The notes beneath the pieces were generated by a model. That model ran no database searches. It was given only the letters and a program-made list of their open reading frames with translations, and had not been told where the DNA came from. DNA of 64,000 nucleotides, taken from Parcubacteria group bacterium Gr01-1014_13. Its GTDB lineage: Bacteria; Patescibacteriota; Patescibacteriia; Magasanikbacterales; GWA2-37-8. The position numbers and the translations under genes are program-made. The stretch spans positions 66,844 to 130,843 of the forward strand of contig VMGB01000002.1 of the NCBI GenBank assembly GCA_007376295.1. The letters are read 5' to 3'. Numbering within the stretch: position 1 is the stretch's first letter; every line of letters begins with the position of its first letter. Shown in pieces: positions 3,046 through 59,846 of the stretch.

Positions 3046-3119
3046 TCGGGCTAGTGGGACTTGAACCCACAGTCCCCTGGTCCCAAACCAGGTGCTCTAG
3101 CCAATTGAGCCATAGCCCG
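3046..3119 (-). tRNA. tRNA-Pro (anticodon TGG)
   Basis: Reverse complement folds as a cloverleaf: acceptor CGGGCTA/TAGCCCG, anticodon stem CCTGG/CCAGG with loop TTTGGGA, T-loop GGTTCAAGTCC. No encoded CCA. Confidence 0.85.
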
Positions 3120-3133
3120 TTTATTTGACTCTG

Positions 3134-3205
3134 TGCCGCGGGTCAGAGTCGAACTGACCACGCCAGCCTCTTCAGGGCTGCGCTCTACCGATGAGCTACC
3201 GCGGC
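3134..3205 (-). tRNA. tRNA-Phe (anticodon GAA)
   Basis: Reverse complement GCCGCGGTAGCTCA...CAGCC CTGAAGA GGCTG...GGTTCGACTC...CCGCGGCA; anticodon loop carries GAA. Confidence 0.85.
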
Positions 3206-3209
3206 ATTG

Positions 3210-3282
3210 TGGACCCTATCGGGCTTGAACCGATCACCCCCGCGTTGCAAACGCGGTGCTCTACCAAATGAGCTAAGGGCCC
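3210..3282 (-). tRNA. tRNA-Ala (anticodon TGC)
   Basis: Reverse complement GGGCCCTTAGCTCA...CCGCG TTTGCAA CGCGG...GGTTCAAGCCC...GGGTCCA; anticodon TGC and G3:U70-type acceptor stem. Confidence 0.85.
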
Positions 3283-17300: not shown

Positions 17301-18246
17301 TGGTGGTGTGGCAGGTGGTGCCGATATTACCCAAGGTTTGCCTCGTGTAGATGAATTGTTTGAAGCTCGTGCTCCAAAGAAACAAGCTATGTTGGCAGAA
17401 GTATCTGGTGAAATTGAAATTGAAAAAGCTGACGGTAAAATTATTACTTCTCCAAGCGGCAAGAAAATTTTTGAAGGCCGACGCGGACAAGAAATTATCC
17501 ATATTCATTTCTCCGGTATGGATGAAATGAAGATAAAGAGTAAGTCCGAAGACGAAGTGATGGTAAAAGACGGTGGAACTGTAAAACAAGACGAAGTAAT
17601 TTTGGTACGCGGATCATCTGGTGAAGAAGTAGTTGCCAAATATGCCGGCAATATCAAAATTGAAAAGAATACTATTACCCTCACTTACGAAGGCCCTCAT
17701 GTACGTGAGTACATTGTACCGTTAGGTTACAAAGTCTTGGTAAAGACAGGTGACAAGGTAGAAAAAGGTGATATTCTTACAGATGGCAGTATCAATCCGC
17801 ACCAATTGTTTGAACTAAAAGGCAAAGAAGCTGTACAGAGATATATTTTGCAAGAAGTACAGGGAATTTACTCTTCTCAAGGTCAGAAAGTGAACGACAA
17901 GCACGTAGAATTGGTAATTCGTCAGATGTTTAGTCGTGTTTACGTAGAAGACGCCGGCGACACCGATCTATTGCCAGGTGAAGTGGTAGAAAAATCACAA
18001 CTTGATTTTGCTAACCGCCAAGCAAAGAAAGATGGTGGCAAGAATGCTGTCGGCAGAGAATTGTTCTTGGGTATCAGTAAGATTGCGCTTTCCACCCAGA
18101 GCTTCTTATCGGCCGCATCGTTTCAAGAAACCGCCAGAGTGTTGATCAATACTGCCATCACCGGCAAGATCGACCACTTGGAAGGTTTGAAAGAAAATGT
18201 GATTATCGGACGTTTGATTCCGGCTGGAACTGGGTTTAAACAGTAA
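14368..18246 (+). CDS. rpoC: DNA-directed RNA polymerase subunit beta'
   Basis: 1292 aa; zinc-finger CYCGKYKK...CDKC, catalytic NADFDGD motif, trigger-loop and clamp regions. Confidence 0.98.
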   Translation: MTDNLYPADFDAIRLKLASPEVVKGWSYGEVHKPETINYRTQKPEKGGLFAEEIFGPTKDWECYCGKYKKIRYKGIVCDKCSVEVTHSSVRRERMGHIELSAPVAHIWFLRSVPSKIGLVLDLSAQALEKVVYFASFVITHVNEEEKKKTSDMLRQEYKTKKKQIEKEASDKVKSANDKKLGAEMLEKIQEDAERKYKSLDEDFQQADKELKELQVMKIVSENKYQELSLRYGHLFEAAIGADGIRNLLARINLDETIKKLAEEQPKVKGSKLERIIRRKKVLKSFFSNKIRPEWMVLQSIPVIPPDLRPMVALDGGRFATSDLNDLYRRVINRNNRLRRLLELDAPEVICRNEKRMLQEAVDALIDNNARHAKTVTASTGQKRQLRSLADILKGKQGRFRQNLLGKRVDYSGRSVIVVGPNLNIDECGLPKRMALELFKPFIMSEVIKRELAHNVRSASRYIEAEHDEVWDILEELTKKTRVLLNRAPTLHRLGIQAFHPRLIEGKAIQLHPLVCTAFNADFDGDQMAVHLPLTAEARFEADTLMAAEKNILKPATGSPVITPKQDIALGCYYLTRYETGDTAEVKKYFSSEKEAILAYRSRVITLQDRIKVRFQDMSRFEEGTKPLIETSVGRIFFNRILPPQLPYINETITAKKSGQIIRMCLELTNDDQQQVAFFLDELKNLGYRYVTKSGYSLGMDDFPTIVEKPGMLAESDKMVAQVEEQYQEGLLTNSERHVKILEIWADTKERIVANNQKALRKDGPVFAMIDSGARGSWGQLGQVIGMKGLVASPSGDTIELPVKGNFKEGFDVLEFFISSHGTRKGLTDTALRTANAGYLTRRLVDVAQDVIVFEDDCGDTSGEVFTAHQSQEMGEKLSDRIWSRYSLETIKVGNKVIIKEGEIIDDKTARYIDEHKIDSVKVRSVLQCRMQKGICRKCYGFDLSKNKPVEFGVAVGIISAQSIGEPGTQLTMRTFHTGGVAGGADITQGLPRVDELFEARAPKKQAMLAEVSGEIEIEKADGKIITSPSGKKIFEGRRGQEIIHIHFSGMDEMKIKSKSEDEVMVKDGGTVKQDEVILVRGSSGEEVVAKYAGNIKIEKNTITLTYEGPHVREYIVPLGYKVLVKTGDKVEKGDILTDGSINPHQLFELKGKEAVQRYILQEVQGIYSSQGQKVNDKHVELVIRQMFSRVYVEDAGDTDLLPGEVVEKSQLDFANRQAKKDGGKNAVGRELFLGISKIALSTQSFLSAASFQETARVLINTAITGKIDHLEGLKENVIIGRLIPAGTGFKQ

Positions 18247-18251
18247 AAAAC
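18211..18251 (+). repeat. Direct repeat copy 1 (native rpoC 3' end, CGTTTGATTCCGGCTGGAACTGGGTTTAAACAGTAAAAAAC)
   Basis: 39/41 identical to 19226-19266. Encodes RLIPAGTGFKQ* in the rpoC frame. Confidence 0.85.
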
Positions 18252-18267
18252 TATTAAAAAGAAACAA

Positions 18268-18297
18268 AAACACTCCAAATAGGGGTGTTTTTGTTTG
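18268..18297 (+). terminator. rpoC terminator (degenerate homolog of the 19277-19303 hairpin)
   Basis: AACACTCC-AAATA-GGGGTGTT followed by TTTGTTT. Confidence 0.6.
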
Positions 18298-18362: not shown

Positions 18363-19232
18363 ATGACAATGGAACATGGTTATCCGGGCAGACAACCGGA
18401 AGAAGATAAAACCAGAGAACTATTTGATTCATTAGGTGAGGATTTTAAAGTATGTTGGGACGCCTTAAATATATCACCAGACAAGGAGCAAAAATTTTTT
18501 GAAATATTAAAAAGATTAGAGAATAAAAAACAGGCAGAAAAACCTGTTTATTTGGATTATATAAAAAGATTATTTAAGGAGGAATTTGAAGAGTTTAAGC
18601 CAGATATTAAGCAATCAAACTTAGACTCTACAAAACATCTAGCCGGTTTAGCTGCAAGTTTTATCGAAAGAGTAGAATTTTTTGATAAAATTATTTCTGT
18701 CCCCGACCGTATTACCAACGGAGGCAGATCTGTGGGTGAATTGGAAGTAGCTTTGCGTGAAGCGGATGTTCTTACGGACGGTGAGAGTGAGATTGATATG
18801 ATACGTAGTGAAGATTTTAAAAGTTCAATTTTAAAAAATTCAGAACAGGAAAGAATTAGCTTGGTCAGGGTAATGCCCTTCTACCTTTTTAATGATAGAG
18901 AATATCGTTCATTAGAAGAAGTTAACAAAAAAGCAAAAGAGTTTGGATTGGAGTTATGTCCGCCAGAAGTCGGGCCAATCTATCGTTTGGCGTATCGACG
19001 AGAAGGAGAGTTAAAAAAAGACCAGCAAAATGATGAGGGATTAACTATAGCCATGAAACCCATTGTCTCTTCAAATGGTTTTTTAAAAACTTTTTATTTA
19101 GGATTTAGTGATAACGGACCATTTATTTGTGATGATAATGTTGATAATATAAATCCTGTTGCTACCCTTGTCTTCCGTCTCCGTCCAGAAAAACCTACTT
19201 CAAAATCAGAAGCTACTGAGTCGGTCGTTTGA
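18363..19232 (+). CDS. Hypothetical protein (289 aa) carried on the insert at the rpoC 3' end
   Basis: Long ORF with no recognisable domain. Its last codons lie inside the second copy of the rpoC-end repeat. Confidence 0.5.
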   Translation: MTMEHGYPGRQPEEDKTRELFDSLGEDFKVCWDALNISPDKEQKFFEILKRLENKKQAEKPVYLDYIKRLFKEEFEEFKPDIKQSNLDSTKHLAGLAASFIERVEFFDKIISVPDRITNGGRSVGELEVALREADVLTDGESEIDMIRSEDFKSSILKNSEQERISLVRVMPFYLFNDREYRSLEEVNKKAKEFGLELCPPEVGPIYRLAYRREGELKKDQQNDEGLTIAMKPIVSSNGFLKTFYLGFSDNGPFICDDNVDNINPVATLVFRLRPEKPTSKSEATESVV

Positions 19233-19266
19233 TTCCAGCGGGAACTGGGTTTAAACAGTAAAAAAC
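19226..19266 (+). repeat. Direct repeat copy 2 (duplicate of rpoC 3' end)
   Basis: CGTTTGATTCCAGCGGGAACTGGGTTTAAACAGTAAAAAAC. Both mismatches to copy 1 are synonymous in the rpoC reading frame. Confidence 0.85.
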
Positions 19267-19276
19267 TTCAAACAAA

Positions 19277-19303
19277 AAGACACCCGAACGGGTGTCTTTT
19301 TGT
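19277..19303 (+). terminator. Rho-independent terminator after repeat copy 2
   Basis: AGACACCC-GAAC-GGGTGTCT followed by TTTTGT. Confidence 0.65.
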
Positions 19304-19354
19304 ATTGACAAAAATTATAATTTATTGTATGTTTTCTCCACAAGGAGATTAAGG

Positions 19355-19780
19355 ATGAGCAATCAGACGTTCCCTTCGACAGCTTTAGATAGCGAGCTAA
19401 TACCAAGTGGATGGAAGATAGTGGAGGATGTTGAACCTTCACAACTCGATGGCATGATGATTAAGACTGTATCCTTTCTTTTCGAGGGAGAAGAAAATAT
19501 CCCTGGCGAAGTGATGCTTGAACGCGCTGAGGAAATGAAAGCTAACCTCGGATTTGCAGATGCTAAGTATTTAGCGAACCATCAGGATAAAATTTCGATT
19601 GAATTTCGATACAATTGCCTCGTGTTTAGCGGTACAGTTTTTGAGGACTTGAGGGGTTGTTTACACCTAGCGTACTTAGCTTTTGGTGAGGGTAACCGTT
19701 GGCATTTGCTCTTCGTTCAGATTGACGGCGTCTATTGGACAGATGATTTTCGTCTTCTGTGTTGTAAAGATTTTTCTTAG
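19355..19780 (+). CDS. Hypothetical protein, family A paralog 1 (homolog of 41121-41564)
   Basis: ATG at 19355 lies 6 nt after the RBS AAGGAG. Shares ANLG..DAK.L..HQ.KI and LVF.GT/AYL blocks with the 41.1-kb gene. Confidence 0.55.
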   Translation: MSNQTFPSTALDSELIPSGWKIVEDVEPSQLDGMMIKTVSFLFEGEENIPGEVMLERAEEMKANLGFADAKYLANHQDKISIEFRYNCLVFSGTVFEDLRGCLHLAYLAFGEGNRWHLLFVQIDGVYWTDDFRLLCCKDFS

Positions 19781-19890
19781 ATCCTCGTTCGGAATTCGCT
19801 GTAAAAGTGAATGTTCGGCGAGGCTTTTTTATTTGATTTTAATGTAACTTTCGGTTAAAATTGGTGTATAAATATTAAGTACACTCCTTT

Positions 19891-40965: not shown

Positions 40966-41120
40966 ATGAGTTTATTTGCTTAATTATGCTGTCAGTGTAA
41001 CAAAAAAGGTTGGTTATTGCAACTTATTTTTCACTAAAACTCTGCCGGTATAAGCTATTGACAGAATCTTTGTTTTTTGCTAAATTATCCCAGTTCTAAA
41101 ATCAATCAAGGAGGTGTGCA

Positions 41121-41564
41121 ATGGAGCTAACGGTAGCGGAAATTTCGGCCCCGTCGGCGCAGATCGCCAGGCAGTACGGTTGTAAGGTTGCGGACCATCA
41201 AGATGTCCAGCAGACAGTGTTCGAGGAACAGGTAGGTCTTATTGAGATAGTTTCTTTCGTGGAACCTAACGATTTCTACATCCACGGCAAGGCTATGCGT
41301 CTGCGGGCAGTCGGGCTCAGAGCAAATCTTGGATTGTTAGACGCCAAGTGTTTGCTCGATCATCAGGAAAAGATCACTGAGGATTTCCGGAAAAGGCGTC
41401 TCGTGTTCACCGGCACGCTTATGCGAGGCCCGGACAACGCTCTCAGTTTCGCGTATCTTTTCTACGACCGTAGTTGGCAGCTGAAGGTCCAGTGGCTCGA
41501 TTGGAATTGGTGCGGTAACTATTATCTGGTTCGCAACAGAAATAATTCTGTTTCTGACCGCTAA
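41121..41564 (+). CDS. Hypothetical protein, family A paralog 2 (homolog of 19355-19780)
   Basis: RBS AAGGAGG before the ATG. Higher-GC gene. Alignable blocks with the 19.3-kb paralog (ANLGLLDAKCLLDHQEKIT; LVFTGTL; FAYLFYDRSWQL). Confidence 0.55.
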   Translation: MELTVAEISAPSAQIARQYGCKVADHQDVQQTVFEEQVGLIEIVSFVEPNDFYIHGKAMRLRAVGLRANLGLLDAKCLLDHQEKITEDFRKRRLVFTGTLMRGPDNALSFAYLFYDRSWQLKVQWLDWNWCGNYYLVRNRNNSVSDR

Positions 41565-41670
41565 TAGACCGCAATACCTGCAGAAGTATAGGGTAGAGGC
41601 GAATCCTCGTTTGGAATTTACTCAAAGTAAATATCTGAACGAGGATATTTTTTTTAAATTTTTTAATACA

Positions 41671-52687: not shown

Positions 52688-52762
52688 TGGCTCCCAGGCC
52701 TGGACTCGAACCAGGGAAATCCACGTTAACAGCGTGGCGTTGTACCGCTCAACTACCTGGGA
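52688..52762 (-). tRNA. tRNA-Asn (anticodon GTT), CCA encoded
   Basis: Reverse complement TCCCAGGTAGTTGAGCGGTACAAC G CCACG CTGTTAA CGTGG ATTTC CCTGG TTCGAGT CCAGG CCTGGGA G CCA. Confidence 0.85.
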
Positions 52763-57095: not shown

Positions 57096-59846
57096 ATGTC
57101 GAACAAGAAGTTGACTCCTGAAGAGGAGTTGCGTGATCTCTGTGATATTTCTGTCGTGGATGCCGTTGCTTATATCGGCGAATTGTCCCCGGGTACGGAA
57201 TATTTCGAACCCGATGTGGCAGATACGCTAATCAAGTTTCTTCAGCAGACGCCGGATCTTACCGGTGTGCTCCTGGACGGCCTGACCAGTGTGCATCGCC
57301 CGGGTATCCTTTCTGATGAGGTTGTGTTTTACAACCGTACGGAAAAAGAACTGTTGGCCCACCTGAAAAAGGTTGAGCGGCACGAGCATGTTCACTGGAT
57401 GTTCAACGAATTGATGAAGATGGAAGATGAGTGGTTGGGCAAGCTCCGTGCGGCGCTTCCTGAAACCAGAATTCCTGAATCAAACTTTGTTTATTCCATT
57501 GACGGCGCTGATTTTCATGGCATGTCCGAACGCATGCTGCGGGTCATTGTCCAGTCCGGCAAAGTCAAGGTGGCGCAGTCCAAGAAAGCCTTGGAAAAGA
57601 GCAGTAGAGATTTGCAACGCAAGCTTGATGGTGTGGGTACTCTCAAAGAGAGCGATCTGCAAGCCAGACTCGGTGAATTGGAAGAGAAGCGTCGCAAGCA
57701 GGTAAAGGATCGCGCGCAAAAGCGTGTGGCCGAAACCGACAAGCAGATTGCAGAAGTCAAAAACGATATCGCTAACCTGAAAAGGTATAGGGAGCTCGAG
57801 GCTTTGCGCAAAGCTTGGAAGGATAAAGATAAAACGGATGATATCGAAAAAAGTGACGAAGAATGGTTCGAGGTAAAGAGCGCTGTTGATATTAAACAGC
57901 AGGGTCTGGTAAAGACCCTGGTTACTTTGACTGCTGAGCGGGCTGCTTTAAATAAAGTTGCCCGCAAGAAAACGGCGCGAGAGACTCTCGATGCCAAGAT
58001 TAAGAAGCTCAAAGAAGAGATCGCCGTTATCGAGGAACAAGTTAAAAACATCGCTGATGATATTGCGGGTCTTGAAGACGAATTCAAGGATTTGCGCGAA
58101 CCAGAAACCAGCGGTGTGTATCATCGTCGTGTCGATGATCACGTGAACCAGTTGTATAAGCGGTTTCAAGAGCTTGGCGAAAAGCACGGTATTCGTATTG
58201 TGACCAAGCGCGGTGTGCTGGCCTTTGGCACACTTGGGATTGATTATGCTTATAACCGCGGACGCACTTTTTTGCCCATGCGGCGTGTGCGTCGGTTGGC
58301 AGAAGAGCATCACGGAATCATGACTGATTACCGTGAAAATATCGCGACTGTTTTGGAAGAATTGAAAGCTTCAGTCAACGATATTGATGTGGTATTGGAA
58401 GGCGGTACTCATGGAGAGTTCTTTGCCCGGTGGCAGAGGCTCCACATTACTACCGAAGAAATTCGCATGCAGCATGTGAACACTTTTTATACTGGCAACA
58501 GTGATGGAGTGAAGCACGTGCTTTTCCTTGCGGGTATGCCTTTTGAACCACAGCATAAAATTGCTAAATACTTGAAGACGGAGAAACCGAGTCGAACGCG
58601 CGGTGGTAAGCCTATTAACAGCGCTTCCCACCATTCATTTATTCGGAACTCCAGAAGATCTGTGTCTGGTACACAGATTATGCGCAAACATCGACATGAG
58701 CTTATGTCTGTCGAAGCGATCATGTATCGGCTTTTCGAAAATAAACAGGTGCTGGAGACGTTCAAGGCAGTAATGAGCCAGGACGATTCAGACAACCACT
58801 TGAACTCGCCGGAAATGGATCCGATGGGTACGATTGGTACTTTTGCTTTGGTAAAACAGCTCATGAAGAATCCTTTGGAGCTGTACGGGCAGAAGGTGCA
58901 TGTTGGCGGCACCCTGAACTTGGGTGATTTGGCCGAAGCTAATTCTAAGGCTTGGAAAGAGGCAACAAAGTTTCGTCGTCAGTGGATGGAGCAGGCCAAG
59001 GAAATTTCCGACCGCCTCGTAGCCACAGACACGACGGACTACAATGCTGTATTGAAAACTTCTCTTTTCTTCCTTAATGATTTGATGGGAGGAGCAAACG
59101 AGAATCTGTGGCTTACCATGGAAGCCGTTAAGCTGTTCCTCAAAGAGAAATTTTTGACGATTCTTAATGAAAGCCCTGCTCGGCTTTTGGACATTTTGGC
59201 TGTGTTGCAAGGCAATCACTTTGCCAACGCGGTGCGAGACGTCACTATTACCGAGTATGGACAATTTGAGGTTTATCTCAAGACGTTAAAAGACGCGCAT
59301 AAAGATTTCCCGACGGAATGGCGTAAACCATTTCCTCTGGAGATCCAGCTTGGCGGTGAACCGCGGTATTTCCAGTCAGATGCAATAAAGCCAGAAATGG
59401 TGGTGCACTTGGGTGGTTATAGCGTTGGCCGTCAAGGAGTTATTGAAAATTATGGCGTGGGGCATAATGGTAAGCTCTTGGTGCAGAAAACGTACCGAGT
59501 CGGTCTAACTCACGAGCCCAACGCTATCCTAAATAAGGCGCGTAATCAAAACGCTGACGTCATTAAGTCTGGGCATACGCATGAGTCGTTTCTGATGATC
59601 GATCAGAGCGGCTATAACATGGGTCGGTTTATTGATCAAAAGCCGTGCACGCAGAGAGTTTCGGCAACGGAACTTTCGTATGGCGGTCTGCCGCGTACGG
59701 CCGGTGTAGACCTTTGTGTCTATTCTCAGCCGGGACGGTATTTCAAGATGACCATTCCCATGGAACACATGCGTAAAATTGGCTTGGCCCAGATGAAAGT
59801 TGAAGCCAAGGAAGCTGTCGAAAAGAAGCTTCCTAAGAAGAAGTAA
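57096..59846 (+). CDS. Large hypothetical protein (916 aa) with a central coiled-coil; compositionally foreign
   Basis: G+C and codon usage (frequent CTG, CGT, GCG, GGC) are clearly above the rest of the window. CAA-repeat leader. Coiled-coil about aa 150-330. No confidently recognised catalytic domain. Confidence 0.7.
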   Translation: MSNKKLTPEEELRDLCDISVVDAVAYIGELSPGTEYFEPDVADTLIKFLQQTPDLTGVLLDGLTSVHRPGILSDEVVFYNRTEKELLAHLKKVERHEHVHWMFNELMKMEDEWLGKLRAALPETRIPESNFVYSIDGADFHGMSERMLRVIVQSGKVKVAQSKKALEKSSRDLQRKLDGVGTLKESDLQARLGELEEKRRKQVKDRAQKRVAETDKQIAEVKNDIANLKRYRELEALRKAWKDKDKTDDIEKSDEEWFEVKSAVDIKQQGLVKTLVTLTAERAALNKVARKKTARETLDAKIKKLKEEIAVIEEQVKNIADDIAGLEDEFKDLREPETSGVYHRRVDDHVNQLYKRFQELGEKHGIRIVTKRGVLAFGTLGIDYAYNRGRTFLPMRRVRRLAEEHHGIMTDYRENIATVLEELKASVNDIDVVLEGGTHGEFFARWQRLHITTEEIRMQHVNTFYTGNSDGVKHVLFLAGMPFEPQHKIAKYLKTEKPSRTRGGKPINSASHHSFIRNSRRSVSGTQIMRKHRHELMSVEAIMYRLFENKQVLETFKAVMSQDDSDNHLNSPEMDPMGTIGTFALVKQLMKNPLELYGQKVHVGGTLNLGDLAEANSKAWKEATKFRRQWMEQAKEISDRLVATDTTDYNAVLKTSLFFLNDLMGGANENLWLTMEAVKLFLKEKFLTILNESPARLLDILAVLQGNHFANAVRDVTITEYGQFEVYLKTLKDAHKDFPTEWRKPFPLEIQLGGEPRYFQSDAIKPEMVVHLGGYSVGRQGVIENYGVGHNGKLLVQKTYRVGLTHEPNAILNKARNQNADVIKSGHTHESFLMIDQSGYNMGRFIDQKPCTQRVSATELSYGGLPRTAGVDLCVYSQPGRYFKMTIPMEHMRKIGLAQMKVEAKEAVEKKLPKKK

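Follow-up and report, generated by a model that had tools for sequence, protein, structure and literature searches.

Parcubacteria group bacterium Gr01-1014_13 carries, in the 64,000-nucleotide stretch analyzed here (the window), two ORFs that are each recorded once in the databases, as hypothetical proteins of a 159,610-bp contig (ORF1, G01um101413_597; ORF2, G01um101413_623). Are the two related, to what family do they belong, and could they derive from proteins that a DGR once diversified? A first-pass annotation of the same DNA had read them as a diverged paralog pair of an unknown family, both with strong RBSs and both in higher-GC stretches consistent with horizontal acquisition.

Results

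ORF1 and ORF2 Are Homologous but Not a Recent Duplication

Both ORFs are present where they had been placed (Table 1), and their relationship is real: BLASTP aligned them at 40% identity over 84 aa (E 1e-16; about 90 residues had been proposed), and their Smith–Waterman score of 142 stands against 27.4 ± 4.5 for 2000 shuffles (z 25.6; best shuffle 54). A tblastn search of the window showed that they are the sole copies, with no third. The strong RBSs are there as described (Table 1). The start given earlier for ORF1, 19292, is a GTG that falls among the terminator and promoter sequences preceding the gene, which in fact starts with the ATG at 19355.

The term "paralog pair" holds for the homology but not for a duplication within the Gr01-1014_13 genome, since each protein is closer to more than 100 proteins of other organisms than to its partner. 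When about 150 family proteins were compared, ORF2 ranked only 145th of 155 alignments as a relative of ORF1, and ORF1 ranked 103rd of 150 as a relative of ORF2. These results indicate that the pair is not a recent within-genome duplication. The best match of ORF1 is P0004 (53% identity), a protein of another organism and the DGR target of locus L008 described below, and the best match of ORF2 is P0007 (46% identity).

Table 1. Positions of the features discussed, in window numbering unless a locus is named.
Feature	Position	Strand	Description
tRNA genes	3046-3282	-	cluster of three
rpoC end, copy 1	18213-18296		last ~12 codons, stop, terminator hairpin
289-aa ORF	18363-19232		single ORF of the ~1-kb insert
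rpoC end, copy 2	19228-19303		same elements; terminator hairpin 19272-19303
ORF1 promoter-like site	19305-19333	+	TTGACA, 17 nt, TATGTT; 10/12 matches
ORF1 RBS	19342-19347	+	AAGGAG, 7 nt before ATG; read from the sequence
ORF1	19355-19780	+	141 aa; member of the CPR DGR-target family, likely C-type-lectin-like fold
ORF1 variable-repeat equivalent	19658-19768	+	37 codons, CLHLAYLAFGEGNRWHLLFVQIDGVYWTDDFRLLCCK; non-canonical
ORF1 intrinsic terminator	19779-19833	+	hairpin then T-run; -19.6 kcal/mol, z -3.6
ORF2 promoter-like site	41058-41086	+	TTGACA, 17 nt, TAAATT; TG before the -10 hexamer; 10/12 matches
ORF2 RBS	41108-41114	+	AAGGAGG, 6 nt before ATG; read from the sequence
ORF2	41121-41564	+	147 aa; distant second member of the ORF1 family
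ORF2 variable-repeat equivalent	41430-41540	+	37 codons, PDNALSFAYLFYDRSWQLKVQWLDWNWCGNYYLVRNR; looks decayed
ORF2 terminator	41603-41656	+	hairpin and T-run; -31.3 kcal/mol, z -4.9
tRNA gene	52691-52762	-	single
916-aa ORF	57096-59846	+	
CTYGG-motif stretch, L008	L008 2441-2530		cassette at L008 2438-4340
CTYGG-motif stretch, L010	L010 1959-2030		cassette at L010 1956-3462
CTYGG-motif stretch, L012	L012 3149-3205		cassette at L012 3146-5084
CTYGG-motif stretch, L018	L018 276-365		cassette at L018 273-2173

Family Size, Architecture, and Predicted Fold

An exhaustive search with a HMMER profile of the two sequences retrieved 882 cluster representatives at E ≤ 1e-3, of which 303 also passed E ≤ 1e-10. 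Neither ORF matched a model in Pfam, NCBIfam, PHROGs, or PADLOC. The family is "unknown" in that no curated family was matched; its function is not blank, as the canonical members are DGR targets (see below). The Pfam models Lectin_C, FGE-sulfatase, and DUF1566 gave no hmmscan match at E ≤ 1 for ORF1 or ORF2. They were also absent at E ≤ 0.01 when 140 family members were compared with Pfam, a search that returned nothing meaningful, and PDB sequences gave nothing meaningful for either ORF or for the family.

Word-indexed homologue searches with ORF1 and ORF2 each retrieved the query itself only, and the same kind of search with a 140-sequence profile retrieved four proteins only. Patterns drawn from the two-sequence alignment had no match in genome and viral contigs, and tblastn found no family match in phage and plasmid records. 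The phage, plasmid, or defense-island context that had been considered was thus not found in PHROGs, PADLOC, the phage and plasmid records, or the viral contigs. Pattern scans recovered 3 genome and 14 metagenome loci related to the pair. Two of the genome loci come from one Candidatus Magasanikbacteria MAG and one from a MAG labelled Gammaproteobacteria; the family loci with a readable organism are mostly CPR (Patescibacteria).

A typical family member is ~190 aa long, with an N-terminal extension of ~55 residues that is absent in ORF1 and ORF2; some members have lipoprotein-like leaders, and a few form tandem arrays of 2–4 domains. ORF1 has no hydrophobic leader, and inspection showed no signal peptide or membrane segment in either ORF1 or ORF2, for which reason both proteins are probably cytoplasmic. 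Outside the repeat, the ORF1 and ORF2 cores keep 28 and 29 of 38 conserved columns, respectively, the family median being 29.

AlphaFold2, given the 140-sequence alignment, produced a model with a pLDDT of 94.4 and a pTM of 0.87 (pLDDT 44 with the two-sequence input), in which two short N-terminal strands are followed by three helices and four long C-terminal strands. Foldseek of this model against PDB and BFVD returned no significant match. [quoted passage not shown] Because the AlphaFold2 model agrees with that expectation, the family fold likely resembles a C-type lectin.

Relatives of ORF1 and ORF2 Are DGR Targets

What do the relatives do? In four related metagenome loci (L008, L010, L012, and L018), a 123–124-nt direct repeat of the 3' end of the family gene lies ~480–500 nt downstream, and the mismatches between the two copies fall at template adenines in 22/23, 20/21, 11/11, and 15/16 cases, respectively (68/71 in total). 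Since adenine-confined differences are the DGR hallmark, the downstream copy can be identified as the template and the last ~124 nt of the gene as its variable repeat. The RTs adjoining these four targets match RVT_1 (E 1e-22 to 1e-27) and carry LGNLTSQ in all four cases and YADD in three, with YAAD in L008; a bAvd-like gene (PF22296; E 1e-9 to 1e-12) also adjoins each target. Furthermore, the L018 template also matches the gene of a fifth locus, L017, and 15/16 of the differences fall at adenines. This copy is free-standing, with a terminator behind it and no retroelement within 8 kb; it is a remote target and shows that such targets occur in the family. ORF1 and ORF2, a real homologous pair, are assignable to this family of CPR DGR targets.

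The four cassettes have a common layout: target, terminator, a TTTGATATACT-type promoter (TATGCTATGCT in L012), leader, template repeat, hairpin, avd on the opposite strand, and RT. The leader, roughly 200–250 nt long with conserved blocks, may be part of the DGR RNA. CTYGG-type motifs recur in the 60–90 nt 3' of the DGR-linked target stops (Table 1), and weaker versions precede the terminators of ORF1 and ORF2. In 6 of the 17 related loci (L006, L015, L017, L018, L019, and L021), the family gene is cut by the contig end, a pattern suggestive of assemblies broken by heterogeneous variable repeats or near-identical paralogues; L017 and L018 have their 5' parts in common.

A further family gene, in Candidatus Magasanikbacteria (L005 7839-9802; JACROI010000043), adjoins bAvd and a DGR-type RT. 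We found no separate template repeat there, and the gene runs from ...RCQ, a template-type ending, into FLHTPP, as after the L010 template repeat; L005 was accordingly dropped as a lead to an intact DGR. Judged by its sequence, it looks as if it were a fused, degenerate cassette in which the variable and template repeats recombined and the spacer was deleted.

The Variable Repeat Divides the Family Genes into Two Classes

In the last ~37 residues of the 140 members, conserved scaffold columns (G, L, V, A, L, W, R, W, L, F, W, L, W, R, L) take turns with hypervariable ones, whose entropy is 3.3–3.7 bits; each of the eight Asn (AAC) codons in the L008 template falls on one of these high-entropy columns. 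Residues unreachable from AAY codons if adenines alone change (K, Q, E, M, and W) account for 3.9% at the hypervariable columns compared with 23.8% at variable columns outside the repeat.

Two classes of genes can be told apart. The canonical class, which takes in every locus with a verified template, has a repeat GC of 0.63–0.74, 59–73% of codons ending in C, and 0–1 K/Q/E/M residues; L007, L009, and L021 also have canonical variable repeats, with no adjacent DGR. The non-canonical class, formed by L011, L014, L016, L019, ORF1, and ORF2, has a repeat GC of 0.41–0.51, 22–41% of codons ending in C, and 2–7 K/Q/E/M residues. Its genes have a terminator at their 3' side and no DGR in the flanks, the flank being short for three of L011, L014, L016, and L019. 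The canonical 3' end, CGT CTC CTC CGC TGC AAG followed by the stop (...RCK-stop), is found in every verified target and in neither ORF1 nor ORF2, whose repeat scaffolds keep 8/13 conserved columns, within the lowest 18% of the family.

The two repeat equivalents have departed from the canonical form to different degrees. That of ORF1 (GC 0.43, 22% of codons ending in C, 2 K/Q/E/M residues) has one extra codon and a scaffold W replaced by Q, and the frame reads three codons beyond the usual CK-stop. Its 3' end, CGT CTT CTG TGT TGT AAA, differs from that of L008 by mostly synonymous changes. At the aligned hypervariable columns, ORF1 has 0/10 adenine-inaccessible residues, so that all are DGR-compatible, and the majority of its variable codons are NNT or NNC. 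The ORF2 equivalent (GC 0.51, 35% of codons ending in C, 3 K/Q/E/M residues) has a two-codon gap relative to both ORF1 and the family consensus and carries K, Q, or W in 4/10 hypervariable columns, the highest count of the set. ORF2 reads seven codons beyond the canonical ...RCK-stop, and its 3' end has diverged.

High GC Is a Trait of the Gene Family

Per-gene composition was compared with the 54 genes of the window (mean GC 0.410, mean GC3 0.372). Of the claim that both ORFs sit in higher-GC stretches, the part on ORF2 stands: with a GC of 50.9% (z 3.3) and a GC3 of 0.595 (z 4.2), it is at the top of the 54 genes, its core outside the point-mutated repeat equivalent is still GC-rich (0.526), and it is compositionally foreign. 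ORF1, on the other hand, cannot be told from the background (GC 42.5%, z 0.5; GC3 0.415, z 0.8). The second-highest GC3 of the window (0.53, z 2.9) belongs to the 916-aa ORF, a further gene of odd composition, for which no Pfam match is on record.

Does high GC mark horizontal acquisition here, as had been proposed? It proved an unreliable mark. In the intact DGR cassettes (L008, L012, L018, and L005 were measured together), the target genes have a GC of 0.57–0.63, compared with 0.35–0.38 for the RTs and 0.37–0.45 for the Avds, and the GC-richness of the targets spans the whole gene, beyond the variable repeat. Because a GC-rich target stands beside an RT and Avd that are as AT-rich as their hosts, high GC is a trait of the gene family. 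ORF1 has lost this trait; with a GC that has come down to the level of the host, it would be the copy that is older or further ameliorated.

Two Free-Standing Units in Housekeeping Surroundings

As read from the sequence, ORF1 and ORF2 are each a self-contained transcription unit with a promoter-like site, RBS, ORF, and terminator (Table 1). Both have housekeeping surroundings: rpoB-rpoC, yebC, and ruvC for ORF1, and thymidylate and dUTPase genes, dCMP deaminase, a PK-family gene, and rplA for ORF2. The neighbors named in the first-pass annotation were found as claimed, namely rpoC and a 289-aa insert ORF 5' of ORF1, and the dCMP deaminase and PK-family genes around ORF2.

Upstream of ORF1, the last ~12 codons of rpoC, with the stop and terminator hairpin, are present twice, with about 35/38 identical bases in the coding part (count from the alignment). 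The two copies bracket an insert of ~1 kb with a single ORF, whose GC3 is unusually low (0.26, z -2.1) and for which Pfam, NCBIfam, PHROGs, PADLOC, and PDB gave no match; by its layout, the insert seems to have arrived as an insertion, duplicating the rpoC end or supplying it anew. The ORF1 unit starts immediately 3' of the second copy, its promoter-like site beginning directly after the terminator hairpin.

The 3' hairpins of ORF1 and ORF2 are 78% identical and thus better kept than the coding sequences, the 5' arm of ORF2, ATCCTCGTTTGGAATT, matching that of ORF1, ATCCTCGTTCGGAATT. Two other elements are homologous to the ORF1 terminator: the hairpin of ORF2 and the terminator of the active DGR target in L008. 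Could the shared hairpin be a genome-wide repeat? This was rejected, because just these two sites in the window match with fewer than three mismatches (four more match with three). A DGR-specific element was also rejected, as the hairpin is the terminator of the target cassette, present in L008 too. Rfam returned only tRNAs over the window (Table 1).

We looked for DGR parts in the window and in extensions of 10 kb at one end and about 7 kb at the other, i.e., contig positions 56,969-137,945 (81 kb). Over the window and its extensions, tblastn with four RTs and four Avds gave nothing below E 0.08, and no RVT_1 is on record for the genes at those contig positions. As for a template repeat, a scan of the window with 50-nt pieces of ORF1 and ORF2 gave no ungapped match reaching 62%, and blastn-short found no match in the 81 kb, where no third copy of the gene turned up either. 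Independent Logan contigs from the same run span ORF1 and ORF2 unbroken, with identical sequence.

Discussion

Fixed Copies, Remote Targets, or Something Else?

In canonical members of the family, an RT with bAvd reads the template repeat close to the gene and makes errors at its adenines, and the resulting cDNA replaces the 3' end of the gene, redrawing the binding surface. ORF1 and ORF2 would descend independently from such target cassettes and now stand with no retroelement nearby. The homology of the ORF1, ORF2, and L008 hairpins suggests that the inherited unit was the target gene with its terminator, without the template, avd, or RT part. The variable-repeat equivalents would then have drifted from the DGR signature, leaving each protein with a fixed specificity. 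We consider it likely that ORF1 and ORF2 are fixed-specificity, putative ligand-binding proteins whose ancestors were DGR targets and which have ceased to be diversified. Three steps of this reading are inferred: that the proteins bind a ligand, that their repeats are frozen, and that evolution ran from the target to the fixed copy. The reading as a whole is firmer for ORF2 than for ORF1.

Could ORF1, ORF2, or both still be active remote targets of a DGR outside the 81 kb, with the shared hairpin serving as a recognition structure? Remote targeting is documented in the family by the L017 variable repeat and the L018 template, the canonical repeats of L007, L009, and L021 lack an adjacent DGR, and remote targets get missed in fragmented assemblies (PMC8144416), the area searched here being 81 kb of one contig. 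The 78% conservation of the hairpin could mark a shared recognition element, yet the same hairpin stands behind the L008 target as a plain cassette terminator. The residues of ORF1 at hypervariable columns are all within reach of adenine mutagenesis, and an AAT-codon template could still serve its NNT/NNC codons; ORF2, on the other hand, has K, Q, or W at four of the ten columns. The repeat equivalents of ORF1 and ORF2 are unlike in sequence and also in length (the extra codon of ORF1, the two-codon gap of ORF2), so that no single template could fit both. Neither ORF has the GC-rich NNC signature and ...RCK-stop of every verified target, and the Logan contigs cross both without breaks. Taken together, active remote targeting is unlikely, though more plausible for ORF1 than for ORF2. 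A particular form of it, in which one or more trans DGRs use AAT rather than AAC templates suited to the AT-rich host and recognize the hairpin, strikes us as distinctly unlikely; if diversification in trans were true, it would amount to a DGR network with several targets, all of them binders that lack a leader and are apparently cytoplasmic.

It is also conceivable that nothing was ever frozen, with ORF1 and ORF2 forming an ancestral, never-diversified branch and DGRs recruiting sister branches later. The non-canonical class does extend to L011, L014, L016, and L019, and the resemblance of L011 to L019 suggests a stable lineage. However, the nearest relative of ORF1 is an active DGR target, and ORF1 itself retains a relic of the conserved 3' end, with the same terminator, and a DGR-type residue spectrum at its hypervariable columns. 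Moreover, since ORF1 and ORF2 are not close relatives within the family, the non-canonical state arose at least twice, and we regard an ancestral branch as improbable. Decay after DGR loss, leaving remnants with no present function, would account for the eroded scaffold and the lost canonical stop of both genes, but it is hard to reconcile with intact frames, near-consensus promoters, strong RBSs and terminators, non-repeat cores as conserved as those of typical members, and the mostly synonymous 3'-end changes of ORF1; it is very improbable.

Implications

With this assignment, two hypothetical proteins gain a recognizable class, and the value is mainly one of annotation: CPR DGR targets are abundant and still have no Pfam model, and the DGR literature has yet to settle where they localize and what they do (PMC8144416). 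The split into canonical and non-canonical genes offers a sequence test, based on repeat GC, codons ending in C, and K/Q/E/M/W content, that tells diversifying from fixed copies without sight of the retroelement. Should the fixed copies prove functional, they would represent binders derived by hypermutation and hard-wired after the loss of the mutator. Nothing here is unexpected for CPR genomes.

Comparison with Known Systems

Animal C-type lectin domains and the C-terminal domains of invasin and intimin share only 7–14% sequence identity with the family, at a Foldseek similarity that is not significant; the family also lacks a Lectin_C Pfam match and any sign of calcium or sugar binding. Verified remote (trans) DGR targets keep a repeat equal to the template at non-adenines, whereas for ORF1 and ORF2 no template was found in the 81 kb searched. 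Like the remote target of the L017/L018 pair, however, each is a gene alone, with its own terminator, away from an RT.

The closest likeness is to the "clade 2" DGR targets of Patescibacteria/CPR (Roux et al. 2021, PMC8144416, and Paul et al. 2017 as cited there), a comparison based on published traits. Unlike these targets, ORF1 and ORF2 have no DGR parts in 81 kb and no variable-repeat signature. On the other hand, both groups are small proteins of uncultivated groundwater CPR with no recognizable transmembrane or Pfam domain, and the relatives of ORF1 and ORF2 carry the same cassette of target, template repeat, bAvd, and RT. Among structurally solved DGR variable proteins, the near systems are Mtd of Bordetella phage BPP-1 (1yu0), TvpA of Treponema denticola (2y3c), and AvpA of Nanoarchaeota (5ioo).
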